A stretch of DNA of 64,000 nt, taken from positions 1,317-65,316 of IMG/VR virus record IMGVR_UViG_3300029106_000003, one strand, 5' to 3'. The DNA comes from a virus. Positions 2,966 through 63,074 of the stretch are shown in pieces. The first letter of the stretch is position 1; every line of letters begins with the position of its first letter. The position numbers were made by a program, and so were the translations under genes. The notes under the pieces were generated by a model that did no database searches, was not told the origin of the DNA, and saw only the letters and a program-made list of their open reading frames with translations.

Positions 2966-3355
2966 TTATATCAAGAAACCCAGTCCTTTCAATTTTGTTA
3001 TCCATTTCACGATGTAAGGGAAGAGCAGCAAGACAATGCCACCGAGAGCCCACCAGCACCATCGGGGAGTCTTGTACTTTACTACCTCGACGGGGTATGG
3101 TACTTGTATGCTTTCCGTCTTGGATATATACAGCGTATCGGTTCTGTCCTTGAACCTATATATGTACTTGTATTGGAACTCCCGTATCGTGTCTCCCGAT
3201 TTCTCGATGAAAACACTGTCCCGCATGTATATGGAATCGAGCTGCACACGATTCAGATACACCGTGTCGCTCTTTGTCGTTTCCACAGGAACATACACAT
3301 GTCTGGTACAACTCGTCGCAGCCAAAAACAACAATAGGAATACGATATGTCTCAT
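2966..3355 (-). CDS. Unimolecular-spanin-like lipoprotein (N-terminal lipobox plus C-terminal TM)
   Basis: Start MRHIVFLLLFLAATSC (signal peptide and Cys lipobox); C-terminal TM WCWWALGGIVLLLFPYIV; its ATG overlaps the endolysin stop as ATGA (3352-3355). Confidence 0.6.
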   Translation of the reverse strand: MRHIVFLLLFLAATSCTRHVYVPVETTKSDTVYLNRVQLDSIYMRDSVFIEKSGDTIREFQYKYIYRFKDRTDTLYISKTESIQVPYPVEVVKYKTPRWCWWALGGIVLLLFPYIVKWITKLKGLGFLI

Positions 3356-4073: not shown

Positions 4074-4156
4074 TTGTAACGAATGTATGAGAGAGTAGCC
4101 TTAGGGTTAGGCTTATCCGTTATTGAAAATGGGACAAACGTAGGCCGAAGGCATTA

Positions 4157-33279: not shown

Positions 33280-33426
33280 AAATTCAATCATTCTTCAAGC
33301 TACTTACAAGAACACTTATGCAATTCTTCGGCTTCTTTCAGTCGTGTCAGATAGCAATTTCTATCACCCCGTAAACTGCACAAGCTTTAATGTTCTTGCT
33401 TTTGCTTATCGCTACTATAAGGGTTG

Positions 33427-33496
33427 AGCGGAAACAGGGAATCGAACCCCACTCTTTGGTTGGAATGCCAACGCTCTGCCGATGAGCTATTTCCGC
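33427..33496 (-). tRNA. tRNA-like gene with glycine identity set and an apparent 8-nt anticodon loop (CAUUCCAA)
   Basis: Acceptor GCGGAAA/TTTCCGC, D arm GCTC-ATCGGCA-GAGC, T arm TGGGG-TTCGATT-CCCTG, discriminator T. The anticodon arm pairs only as TTGG/CCAA around CATTCCAA. Confidence 0.6.
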
Positions 33497-60804: not shown

Positions 60805-61893
60805 TCAGAAAAGTTTCTTTTGTATAGATTCGCATGATTTGTCCGTGAACAGTTTTCGGAATATGTGGAAAAGGACATCTACGACGATACTGTTACCTGC
60901 CATCACATATTGCCTGCTGTCGCTTATTCCCGCATTTTGAATCTTGTTTATATCCGATTCGCTGACACCCATTAACCGGAAACATTCTCTCGGTGTCAGC
61001 CTTCTTATCTTTTCCAGACACAGAAAGTTATTTTCCTGCCACGAGTTGCTTGTTATCGCAGGGCATATCGTGTATGTCCCTCCTTTGTTGAATCCTCTGC
61101 TGCGTTGTATTATCTCGGGTTCCGAATATTCCCCCACGATTATCGAATTGTCGGTCGGACTTAATGCTCCGTTAGCTCTCAGACAATTGGCTGTGCCATC
61201 ACTTGTTTTAGGCAACCATAAAAAGCCTGTTCCTTTTTTTACGTGAGCGATGTTGTGTCTTATGAAACCTTTTATCATTTTCTCGCTCAAAAAATACTTT
61301 TCGTCCACGTCGCATTCGAGAATGTCCCTCAATCTCTTTTCAATGGGTAAGGGTTCCGGGAAATAATACGATTCCGAGTCTCGTATCGAAATCATGAATA
61401 CTCTTTCCCTGTTATGGGGAATGCCGTAGTCTTTCGCATTCAGAACCTTCGTATGGTTCGTGTACCCTAATTGGGAAAGGTATTGTTCCCATGCCGATAA
61501 AAAACACTTGTATTTCCTTCCGGTAAGGGACTTTACATTTTCCATGAGCAGGTATTTCGGCATCTTGGTCTCTATCGCTTTCTCGCATTCCCATAACAGG
61601 CTGCTGCGTGTCCCGCTGCCTTTCTCCAATCCCGCCTGCTTTCCGGCCGTTGAAATGTCCGTGCAGGGGAAAGAATATGTGAACAGGTCGAAGTCGGGAA
61701 CTTTTGCCCAGTCTATATGGCATATATCCCCGAAGTTCCTGTCTCGGTATTGAGGATATACGGCATTATGGGCTTGTATGGCGTACTTGTCGATTTCCGA
61801 CCAGCCGACCAGATCGTAACCGATTCCGAGCCGGTCGAGTGCCATGCACTGGCTGTCATATCCGCTGAATGCTGTAAAGACTTTTAATTGCAT
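60805..61893 (-). CDS. DNA (cytosine-5) methyltransferase
   Basis: Motif I FSGYDSQ, motif IV FPCTDIS, motif VI LMENVKSL, HNRERVF, C-terminal GNSI; ATG 61893. Confidence 0.9.
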   Translation of the reverse strand: MQLKVFTAFSGYDSQCMALDRLGIGYDLVGWSEIDKYAIQAHNAVYPQYRDRNFGDICHIDWAKVPDFDLFTYSFPCTDISTAGKQAGLEKGSGTRSSLLWECEKAIETKMPKYLLMENVKSLTGRKYKCFLSAWEQYLSQLGYTNHTKVLNAKDYGIPHNRERVFMISIRDSESYYFPEPLPIEKRLRDILECDVDEKYFLSEKMIKGFIRHNIAHVKKGTGFLWLPKTSDGTANCLRANGALSPTDNSIIVGEYSEPEIIQRSRGFNKGGTYTICPAITSNSWQENNFLCLEKIRRLTPRECFRLMGVSESDINKIQNAGISDSRQYVMAGNSIVVDVLFHIFRKLFTDKSCESIQKKLF

Positions 61894-61908
61894 ATCTTTC
61901 TCTTTTTG

Positions 61909-62138
61909 TTCGGCAGGCGGGACTCGAACCCGCATGATAGGAGTTTTCCTAAGACTTTCACTTAGTAGTTTTAATTTGTGAGGTTGCGCTCACCGTGCGA
62001 TACTTTCGTATGCCTAAACTCGGAGGAGAATTGTCAAGCGGTAATTTTTATTTTACGGCTACGCCTCTACAAGCTGTGCCATTGCCAACCTATCTATAAG
62101 AGCTACACTTTATCGTATACCAATTCCGACACTGCCGA
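61909..62138 (-). ncRNA. Structured RNA with a tRNA-like domain (acceptor, class-II-like D arm, T arm) split by ~135 nt
   Basis: 5' TCGGCAG-TG-TCGG-AATTGGTAT-ACGA ... GATAGG [135 nt with hairpins] CCTATC-AT-GCGGG-TTCGAGT-CCCGC-CTGCCGA-A 3'. Confidence 0.45.
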
Positions 62139-62243
62139 TACCACCTAAAACACTTATGGCTTATTTCTCCCCGCAGTTCCTTCCTCCGTATGGTGCTCGA
62201 CCACGTACCCGGTTCTGCTTGCGGGAATGTCTCACATTATGTC

Positions 62244-63074
62244 TTATTTTATGAATTTATTCATGTCGAATATCATTGAACCACCACCGGTAACTGTCGG
62301 TAGATTCCCGTTCCACTTCTCTATCATATTCTGCTGTATTATCAGAGTGGATAAGGAGGCTGATATTTTTCGGTTATATTCAGCCTCGGCATCTCCTTTT
62401 ATTTTCAATGCGTCTGCCTGTCCTTTCGCTTCGGCAACCTTTTTCTTTGCCGCTGCTTCTACTGCTTTTACTTCATTTTCTATTTTCAAAGCATCTTGTA
62501 CAGCCTTGTTTTTGGCATCTATGGCGGCAACCAAACTCGGTGGATATTGTAAGCCGGATGTCATTTGTTCGAGCTGGAAATTCTCTGCGAGCAACTCTTT
62601 GGACAGTCTGTCTTCTATGGCCTTCTCAAACTCTTCCCGTTTGCTGACCAGCTCGTCGGTAGTATAGGCATTTAACTGTATTCGAAATGCATTCTTTACA
62701 TAGTTATATAGGGTCGTATTGATTATGTCGTCTAAATTGTCTTTTCTATATTTCACGAATACTTGTGCGGCTTTTCCGTCTACTATCTTCAAGGAAATGG
62801 TCGGATCGACAGAAAATGATGAACCGTCTTTGGCATTGATAGTGAACGGTTCATAATCTACCGTCTGGACAAATGTAGGATATTCATAAACAGCTGTGGT
62901 TATCGGATTATACCAAACTGCACCGGTAACCAATGCTACATTGTCAACGCCTTTGGAATCTCCATAAAGATTGACTTTAATGCCTTCGTATCCGGCATCT
63001 ACTCGCTCGTAACAAGAGGTCATCGCCATTGATGTGAAAACGGCTATCAAGCCGATAATGAACTTACTTTTCAT
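62244..63074 (-). CDS. SPFH/band-7 (prohibitin-like) lipoprotein
   Basis: Signal and lipobox FTSMAMTSC; SPFH core followed by an Ala/Lys/Glu coiled-coil. Confidence 0.75.
   Translation of the reverse strand: MKSKFIIGLIAVFTSMAMTSCYERVDAGYEGIKVNLYGDSKGVDNVALVTGAVWYNPITTAVYEYPTFVQTVDYEPFTINAKDGSSFSVDPTISLKIVDGKAAQVFVKYRKDNLDDIINTTLYNYVKNAFRIQLNAYTTDELVSKREEFEKAIEDRLSKELLAENFQLEQMTSGLQYPPSLVAAIDAKNKAVQDALKIENEVKAVEAAAKKKVAEAKGQADALKIKGDAEAEYNRKISASLSTLIIQQNMIEKWNGNLPTVTGGGSMIFDMNKFIK

Follow-up and report, generated by a model that had tools for sequence, protein, structure and literature searches.

Several described RNAs join a transfer RNA (tRNA)-like part to something other than an anticodon arm. 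In transfer-messenger RNA (tmRNA, SsrA) the 5' and 3' ends make a tRNA-like domain of acceptor stem and T arm round a large pseudoknotted insert, which takes the place of the anticodon arm. YrlA is a non-coding RNA with a tRNA-like module (T arm, D arm and acceptor-like stem), in which the Ro-binding stem is made by the 5' and 3' ends and the tRNA-like part lies inside. In the engineered tRNA scaffold and in the MALAT1 mascRNA, tRNA enzymes process a tRNA body, and the cargo of the scaffold sits in the anticodon position, where it is protected from decay; the t-elements of plant mitochondria reportedly contribute to the formation of mRNA 5' and 3' ends. Phage T4 carries inside its tRNA gene cluster the genes of two stable RNAs, rnaC and rnaD ('species 1 and 2'), to which no function has been assigned, and the ornate ROOL and GOLLD RNAs of phages and prophages, likewise without an assigned function, often lie near tRNA islands, the GOLLD linker sometimes containing tRNAs (PMC12286853). 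Here we describe a 230-nucleotide (nt) element at 62138..61909 on the minus strand of a 64,000-nt stretch of viral DNA (IMG/VR record IMGVR_UViG_3300029106_000003, positions 1,317 to 65,316; below, the window, numbered from its first letter), in which acceptor, D and T arms (the frame, or chassis) enclose about 155 nt (the cargo). An earlier note on the window had proposed a split tRNA-like domain closing a large structured insert at exactly these coordinates, and both the re-read sequence and the covariation across homologous phages bear this out: the element is an RNA gene made of two modules, and its structure is under selection.

An RNA gene of two modules, selected for its structure

The frame resembles tRNA-Leu and is under selection. 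The T arm and 3' acceptor strand, GCGGG-TTCGAGT-CCCGC-CTGCCGA-A, lie at 61933-61909 as the earlier note had read them, and the upstream complement TCGGCAG that it pointed out completes a perfect 7-base-pair (bp) acceptor stem. Homologues carry at least 11 different acceptor-stem sequences, all paired at 7/7 positions, and at each of the acceptor positions 1 to 6 at least three types of Watson-Crick pair occur. Covariation is also seen in the D stem (GCGG/ACGC, GTGG/ACAC, TCGG/ACGA) and in the T stems, and no frame departs from U8-G9, the G13.A22 mismatch or the AU linker. The proposed likeness to the class II D arm of tRNA-Leu also held, the best matches of the D-arm region being all tRNA-Leu among 134 distinct tRNAs from all fetched loci; in locus L301 (loci are given by L numbers) the region is identical at 19/19 positions to a tRNA-Leu(CAG). 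When the cargo was replaced by a 7-nt loop, ARAGORN recognised a tRNA in the window and L015 with its default settings, and in L001, L004 and L233 once these were relaxed. The frame of the window is the most canonical one, with A14, G18G19, a TTCGAGT T loop and A15 with U48. The discriminator is A, G, U or C depending on the lineage, and L301, in which the 3' end of the element (near 4080, minus strand) reads TACCACC, then A, then CCA, is the only lineage in which we saw an encoded discriminator followed by CCA.

The cargo is a double-pseudoknot module. In its consensus fold the helices follow the order A-X-Hc-Ha-Hc'-Ha'-A'-X': helix A joins a strand 5' of the closing helix X to an internal strand and hence crosses X, and helix Ha crosses Hc as an H-type pseudoknot. 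In an alignment of 37 sequences, 93.2% of the cells were paired, against 27-42% with the partners slid, and double-sided changes were found at 18/30 pairs, a count reached by 0/500 shuffles; an alignment of 31 sequences that included newer lineages gave 92.4% of cells paired and double-sided changes at 19/27 pairs. In both, many sequences are near-identical and the alignments were fitted to the model, so that there are fewer independent events than the cells imply. Helix X, the GATAGG/CCTATC helix of the earlier note, was paired in 99.5% of cells with compensatory changes at 5/6 pairs, and the terminal hairpin CTAAG-TGAAAGT-CTTAG, likewise noted before, showed double-sided changes at 4/5 pairs, its loop being GAAA or GUGAAAG in other lineages and of the GNRA type. 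Helix A (AGCUC/GAGUU, GUGCUC/GAGCAC, AACCC/GGGUU, AGCCC/GGGUU) changed on both sides at 4/6 pairs. Helix Hc was 100% paired, with the compensatory variants UACC/GGUG (L236), UAGC/GCUG (L301) and UGUC/GACG (L287) and, in L233, a 1-bp insertion matched on both strands; helix Ha was 93-97% paired, with double-sided changes at three to four pairs. Besides the helices, about 40 unpaired nt of the cargo are near-invariant (UUAUAG, GUAAAA, AAUUAC, ACAAUUC and AAAACUCC).

Other details of the structure first proposed fared less well. The GCCGTAA/TTACCGC helix cannot be kept as drawn, as GCCG pairs with UGGC instead, with compensatory changes, and UAA/UUA, the only part counted, is near-invariant. The hairpin GTGAG-CGCAAC-CTCAC is present in the sequence but sits in a lineage-specific variable region. 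The further structured stretch said to extend to 62232 is conserved within the family but folds no better than shuffles (z = -0.48), and the GC content of the element (0.445) does not exceed that of its flanks (0.34-0.52). That no open reading frame (ORF) explains the region was correct, as no convincing ORF covers the element. A variant of the element is seen in L295 (513-640, minus strand; on a contig of 320 kb), which shares its 5' half with L287 (3895-4037) and in which a large insertion splits the optional hairpin.

Homologues are widespread. A sensitive blastn search against phage records matched Brochothrix phage BtpYZU01, which has the same architecture with different compensating stems, and pattern scans of viral contigs retrieved 28, 99 and 74 loci. 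A covariance model, R1, built from 11 diverse cargo members, found the single copy of the window at 61935-62116 (151.8 bits, E = 3e-35), no second cargo copy in the window, and one copy per related locus; a metagenome scan yielded 21 loci, 13/21 being true members by covariance model. In total, the cargo was found in about 170 viral contigs plus the Brochothrix phages BtpYZU01 and ADU4, and the phages that carry it, often inside tRNA arrays, span at least two bacterial phyla. A pattern scan of genome contigs with TTGGCAN{4,34}TAGCCGTAAAA gave 120 loci and, by nhmmer, 0 homologues, about 2000 chance matches being expected by our own estimate. No Rfam 15 family matched any form of the cargo module, either at the gathering threshold or at E <= 10, and Rfam searches of the window, the types B and C described below, the cargo of phage BL3 and alleles 2-4 of the window's locus returned only tRNA and T-arm matches. 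Since the cargo family is absent from Rfam 15 and the literature that we searched held no description of it, it appears to be undescribed. The earlier note had recognised neither that the insert forms a widespread RNA family in its own right, present also where there is no tRNA frame, nor that sister phages carry other cargos on the tRNA frame.

Cargo and frame as separable modules

The cargo is independent of the chassis, and the chassis is reused for other cargos. Canonical tRNA-like frames hold the cargo in the window family, in subfamily A2 (~70 contigs), in L004, L015, L287 and L233 and in the Brochothrix phages. In L230 it is closed by a degenerate four-way junction, in L244 by a hairpin and a long helix, and in types B and C (crAss-size contigs), the L050 family, L228 and L236 by plain helices of 9 to >20 bp.

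The converse was found by scanning with the window's T-arm plus 3'-acceptor 24-mer, which detected 77 contigs. Among the loci fetched, four different middles were found in an otherwise constant setting of leader, acceptor stem, T arm and downstream genes: the window's cargo (25 loci), an 83-85-nt allele that is the commonest at the window's locus (47 loci), and alleles of 166 nt (2 loci) and 233 nt (4 loci) with unrelated middles. Model R1 did not match alleles 2-4. Every allele combines freely with the same set of downstream genes. What is swapped extends from the D arm to the AU linker, and the acceptor/T-arm minihelix stays constant. The 83-85-nt allele (L336 612-696 and about 46 others within L317-L370) has a normal D arm and anticodon stem and a loop containing UAAGGAG; in its 85-nt form it passes the Rfam tRNA threshold with 40.4 bits, yet its anticodon loop is 20 nt long. 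In Brochothrix phages, one frame at one locus carries the cargo described here (BtpYZU01, ADU4), an unrelated insert of ~107 nt (BL3) or an insert of 30 nt (BtpYZU02). The BL3 cargo (L222 1508-1672) shares CCGGGTCGCTAC(T/C)GG with the T4 species 2 RNA (L245, T4 rnaD, 3054-3172), a motif equalled by 2/300 shuffles that may reflect distant homology or chance.

The 233-nt allele represents a second cargo family of the same design, with a structured cargo of ~190 nt, covarying internal helices and no Rfam match. It is found at the window's locus in L320, L323, L362, L365, L371 and L374-L376, and also in L372, L373 and L316 (1010-1262, minus strand), and it rides on other tRNA-Leu-like frames with compensating acceptors (GACCGAG/CTCGGTC, GACCAAG/CTTGGTC, GGTGGTA/TACCACC). 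In L316 this second cargo and an A2 element form a tandem that directly follows two tRNA genes. An unusual tRNA whose anticodon loop has 6 nt (ARAGORN 'tRNA-??? (tc)'; 47.4 bits with the Rfam tRNA model) is present in L316 (1685-1755, minus strand), 5 nt upstream of the A2-type scaffolded RNA, and in the window (33426-33496, minus strand), where inspection by eye showed no scaffolded RNA next to the window's own tRNAs.

The genomic setting differs between lineages. Outside the gut Bacteroides-phage families, a tRNA gene lies on the same strand 9-335 nt from the element in 8/10 lineages, and the arrays that hold it contain up to 25 tRNAs: the element lies between tRNA-Gly and tRNA-His in L236, 21 nt from tRNA-His in the L050 family, 84 nt before tRNA-Asn in BtpYZU01 and 68 nt before tRNA-Met in ADU4. 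In the gut families it is found in accessory islands, with C5, N6/N4 and Dam-like DNA methylases, SPFH, DUF4494, Tad2-like, radical SAM, HNH and PNK-phosphatase genes as neighbours. Near-identical copies have many different neighbours on both sides, and homology ends just past the 3' end and its A-rich spacer. In L017 (10591-10707) and L356 (10134-10250) a second, partial copy comprising the 3' ~100 nt follows a truncated copy of a gene for 187 amino acids, joined at the microhomology TGAGCGC, a footprint of cassette recombination, and in L019 (from ~2330) the junction sequence AACAAAAAGAGAAAATATATG stands three times in tandem between the RNA 3' end and the next gene. Two over-long tRNA-like genes were also seen close to other members of the family, one of 119 nt with an internal second T-arm-like hairpin (L228 1002-1120, minus strand) and one of 101 nt with a non-tRNA middle (L244 4538-4638, plus strand), and the arrays that hold the element also contain RAGATH-27 and int-alpA RNAs and, in one array, a suppressor tRNA with the anticodon tta (L015 6448-6531; L227 6053-6136, 4003-4073, 3296-3363; L225 411-484).

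In the window, the ORFs flanking the element are SPFH, DUF4494, C5 methylase and KilA-N. The gene upstream is an SPFH/Band 7 gene (62244-63074), and the adjoining downstream gene, a C5 methyltransferase as the earlier note had it, is a C5 DNA methylase (Pfam DNA_methylase, E = 1.6e-60) with its ATG at 61893. The leader is 105 nt long, is conserved behind two different upstream genes and ahead of all four cargo alleles, and could be a precursor leader or a promoter; besides lacking a significant fold, it gave no sigma-70-type promoter match, and nothing convincing was found at the element in the way of a sigma-70 promoter or intrinsic terminator that would set the RNA ends. In sister contigs homology stops at the A-rich spacer, beyond which there are at least four different downstream genes. 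The parts of the element are listed in Table 1.

Table 1. Parts of the element in the window, in order along the minus strand, followed by its immediate flanks
Feature	Position	Strand	Basis or remark
Acceptor stem, 5' strand TCGGCAG	62132..62138	-	exact complement of 61910-61916
U8 G9	62131-62130	-	sequence
tRNA-Leu-type D arm TCGG-AATTGGTAT-ACGA with G13.A22 mismatch	62129-62113	-	sequence, tRNA-Leu score, covariation
18-nt linker from D arm to closing helix	62095..62112	-	holds helix A 5' strand AGCTC, 62100-62104
Closing helix X, 5' strand GATAGG	62089..62094	-	anticodon-stem position; pairs with 61936-61941
Helix Hc, TGGC/GCCG	62084-62087 with 62056-62059 (region 62056..62087)	-	covariation
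Hairpin region inside Hc, lineage-specific	62067-62083	-	
Helix Ha, 5' strand AGGCG	62062-62066	-	within Hc
Conserved segment (G)UAAAA-N4-AAUUAC-CGC-UUG-ACAAUUC	62024..62055	-	near-invariant across lineages; deleted in subfamily A2
Helix Ha, 3' strand CTCCT	62024-62028	-	3' end of conserved segment 62024..62055
Pseudoknot helix A, 3' strand GAGTT	62017..62021	-	covaries with 62100-62104
Two lineage-specific hairpins, GCATAC-GAAA-GTATCGC and GGTGAG-CGCAAC-CTCAC	61978..62014	-	length and sequence vary between lineages
AAAACTA, terminal hairpin CTAAG-TGAAAGT-CTTAG (61949-61965), GAAAACT	61942..61972	-	hairpin covariation; ACUCC conserved
Closing helix X, 3' strand CCTATC	61936..61941	-	pairs with 62089-62094
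AU linker and T arm GCGGG-TTCGAGT-CCCGC, canonical T loop	61917..61935 (arm 61933-61917)	-	T-arm model match, covariation
Acceptor stem, 3' strand CTGCCGA, and discriminator A	61916-61910 and 61909	-	CCA not encoded
Non-coding leader, family-specific	62139..62243	-	begins directly after the stop codon of whichever gene is upstream
A-rich spacer CAAAAAGAGAAAGAT	61894..61908	-	conserved between RNA 3' end and downstream start codon

Possible function and rival explanations

On balance we consider it probable that this phage gene encodes a stable non-coding RNA that acts in trans, is made of a tRNA-Leu-derived chassis and a cargo and is released by tRNA processing. The chassis would correspond to the top half of a tRNA-Leu-derived cloverleaf (7-bp acceptor stem, U8, class-II-type D arm, T arm and A73), and the ~155 nt of cargo, compactly folded, would occupy the position of the anticodon arm. 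The RNA would be transcribed together with its neighbours, cut by RNase P at its 5' end and finished at its 3' end by RNase Z or exonucleases and the CCA-adding enzyme. RNase P, the 3'-end processing machinery, the CCA-adding enzyme and EF-Tu recognise a tRNA by its acceptor/T-arm minihelix, and because it is this minihelix that stays constant in the element, the frame is likely to recruit host tRNA maturation. Excision would at the same time release the mRNA of the downstream methylase, headed by a short A-rich leader, and the tRNA-like frame would shield the RNA from decay. For the helix-closed versions that lie in tRNA arrays, release would come from the cleavages that separate off the neighbouring tRNAs. 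The cargo would be the active part, binding a partner conserved across bacterial phyla; with its numerous unpaired invariant bases and its loop of the GNRA type, it looks like a globular binding or catalytic RNA, probably with a trans target conserved from Bacteroidota to Bacillota. Because of the array and accessory-island contexts, our best guess for this target, and most plausibly its nature, is a component of tRNA metabolism, translation or antiviral defence. The exchange of middles suggests that phages use a tRNA chassis to express interchangeable functional RNAs.

A bolder extension, which we regard as possible but doubtful, is that phages keep a library of functional RNAs (aptamers, inhibitors, ribozymes) on the tRNA-Leu chassis and exchange them like anti-defence genes, the window's cargo being an RNA-only counter-defence or host-takeover factor. 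These RNAs would be expressed from tRNA arrays or accessory islands, the cargo of the window would be a new class of globular RNA, and its pan-bacterial target could be, for example, a factor of translation or tRNA metabolism, a tRNA-targeting immune nuclease or an immune signalling nucleotide.

Several points weigh against a processed, trans-acting RNA of this kind. A true tRNA elbow is not a feature of every lineage, as in several of them the T loop is TGCAAAT or TGTGAAC or the D loop lacks GG, and CCA is not encoded, L301 excepted. In the window, 28 kb separate the RNA from the closest tRNA gene. The helix-closed forms show that the cargo can do without the tRNA frame, which could have a role of its own. 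The independent compensatory events are fewer than the cell counts suggest, owing to close relatives and model-fitted alignments. Finally, processing by RNase P and RNase Z is something that we infer, and the partner of the cargo is putative.

Known RNA classes were compared with the element one by one. As in tmRNA, its ends form a tRNA-like domain of acceptor stem and T arm. However, pair 3:70 is G:C in the window, in line with the earlier remark that the alanine features of tmRNA are lacking, and no lineage has a G:U there; the ARAGORN tmRNA search reported no tmRNA at the element, and Rfam, which had no match there at gathering thresholds, matched at E <= 10 only the T arm, with the tmRNA model of the tmRNA/tRNA clan (14.5 bits against a gathering score of 47). 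Nor was a conserved tag reading frame with a stop found: in most lineages with the canonical core, one frame at 62024-62060 spells SRKxxIT(A/V) and then meets UGA, UAA or UAG at a shared position, but it is disrupted in L001/L223 and L287, subfamily A2 lacks the region, and we read the segment as a U-R-R-ACAA RNA motif rather than a coding frame. With a true D arm present and G3:U70, tag frame and model match lacking, the likeness to tmRNA raised in the earlier note does not extend to membership. The same holds for the Y-like RNAs it had named alongside, as the ends of the element form an acceptor stem, the topology is thus the inverse of that of YrlA, no Rfam match was obtained and none of the flanking ORFs, to which this search was limited, is an rsr (Ro/TROVE) gene. 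The ROOL and GOLLD models gave no match at the gathering threshold or at E <= 10, and the element measures 230 nt against their 500-800 nt. A topology like that of the hepatitis delta virus ribozyme was set aside, as the ~34 nt between the hairpin and the 3' strand of helix A do not fit it. Homology with T4 rnaC and rnaD was rejected as well, only the T arm and the borderline 15-mer common to the BL3 cargo and rnaD matching; on the T4 region, the best match of model R1 (11.8 bits) lay away from rnaC and rnaD, and no sequence similarity to the cargo was seen.

We give hardly any credence to the alternatives put forward earlier of a degenerate or intron-containing tRNA or an attP-type tRNA remnant. 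The window's element does have acceptor, D and T arms with U8, A14, G18G19 and a canonical T loop, ARAGORN in intron mode proposes a tRNA-Phe(GAA) with a 146-nt intron, and the commonest allele of the locus scores as a tRNA in Rfam. However, at default settings ARAGORN finds only three ordinary tRNAs in the window, all away from the element, and the intron solution is a forced one that uses the 3' half of the terminal hairpin, a strand that covaries with its partner there; no strand matching this solution was found in L001, the one homologue inspected by eye. No 5-bp anticodon stem with a 7-nt loop (U33, R37) can be assembled once the insert is removed, and the 85-nt allele has its oversized loop. 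A group I intron does not fit either: Intron_gpI gave no match even at E <= 10, the exons form no tRNA, the helix order does not map onto P3-P8 and, to our knowledge, the insert is smaller than any group I intron. For an attP core, the full frame is present and its 5' strand covaries, which agrees with the earlier argument against a simple 3' fragment, and the neighbouring genes, with SPFH and the methylase directly flanking, include no integrase.

Four further explanations concern what the conserved structure is for. It is unlikely that the RNA is a decoy or inhibitor, whose frame baits tRNA-targeting defence nucleases or tRNA-modifying toxins and whose variable middle tunes specificity or blocks cleavage; the hypervariable anticodon domain on a constant frame among near-identical phages, the position in accessory islands beside DNA methylases and Tad2-like anti-defence genes, and the co-location with phage tRNA arrays would all suit such a role, but the members with plain-helix-closed cargo offer no tRNA bait, and the strong conservation of the cargo among phages of different phyla is better explained by a conserved partner than by a strain-specific nuclease. 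A cis-acting role towards the downstream gene, as tRNA-type punctuation or a riboswitch-like methylase leader, seems to us quite improbable. In the window family and type B the RNA does end 15-25 nt before a start codon with a conserved A-rich spacer, and in L017 and L356 the duplicated 3' part is kept ahead of the cassette gene. Against this, the downstream genes are mutually unrelated, in other lineages tRNAs or terminator-like hairpins follow the RNA, no alternative switching structure is conserved, and a 155-nt double pseudoknot far exceeds the needs of punctuation; a riboswitch as such was rejected on the same grounds, with no riboswitch model match and no expression platform.

An aminoacylatable tRNA-Leu mimic, charged by leucyl-tRNA synthetase (LeuRS) and acting in a tmRNA-like manner on the ribosome or as an aminoacyl donor, is in our view very unlikely. 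LeuRS does not read the anticodon, and the tRNA-Leu-type D arm, the A73, U8, A14, G18G19 and canonical T loop of the window, the encoded A73 and CCA of L301, and the SRKxxIT(A/V) frame with its stop in many lineages would all be in keeping with such a mimic. This is countered by the variable discriminator, the non-canonical T and D loops of several lineages, the helix-closed members without any acceptor end, the lineages in which the reading frame is broken or missing, and the negative results for G3:U70, the ARAGORN tmRNA mode and the Rfam tmRNA model. Least attractive of these four is the idea, highly improbable in our judgement, that the block is a recombination module or selfish element kept for cassette exchange in mosaic genomes and not for RNA action. 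Near-identical copies with many different genes to either side, footprints of recombination and duplicated junctions are what it would leave behind, but the compensatory changes in five helices and the conservation from Bacteroides to Brochothrix phages require selection on RNA structure, and there is one copy per locus.

Comparison with known systems

What is new here is, in the first place, the RNA itself, an uncatalogued, widespread and strongly conserved double-pseudoknot RNA of phages. It is also a natural counterpart of the laboratory 'tRNA scaffold', with a structured cargo on a tRNA-Leu-derived frame, and both the swapping of cargos on a constant frame among near-identical phages and the existence of a second cargo family of the same design are new. 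The element offers a concrete small system in which to study the role of stable RNAs in phage tRNA clusters, of which T4 species 1 and 2, ROOL and GOLLD are the earlier examples, and it allows a direct test of whether phages use RNA, besides proteins, as exchangeable accessory or counter-defence factors. Its compact and naturally optimised chassis/cargo designs may also be of use for RNA expression.

In conclusion, the element resembles tmRNA in its topology, the T4 stable RNAs, ROOL and GOLLD in its biology, and the engineered tRNA scaffold in its logic. With tmRNA it shares a terminal acceptor/T-arm domain round a large pseudoknotted insert in place of the anticodon arm, but tmRNA has no D arm, whereas the element has a real one, and the internal domain of the element also exists without any tRNA-like domain. 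Like T4 rnaC and rnaD it is a phage RNA found in tRNA gene clusters, and rnaC shares with it a terminal canonical T arm (CCGGG-TTCGAAT-CCCGG) with an acceptor-like strand behind it; unlike in the element, neither a D arm nor a double pseudoknot can be recognised in rnaC. ROOL and GOLLD are 4-5 times larger, unrelated in sequence and structure, and adjoin tRNAs, whereas the element described here is embedded in a tRNA frame. YrlA also combines a non-coding RNA with a tRNA-like module, but in the inverse arrangement, and the neighbours of the element are SPFH and methylase genes rather than rsr. The engineered tRNA scaffold, the t-elements and mascRNA work in the way in which the element would be expected to work; those systems are artificial or lack a conserved cargo, whereas the element has a conserved natural cargo family and a chassis that is exchanged between cargos.

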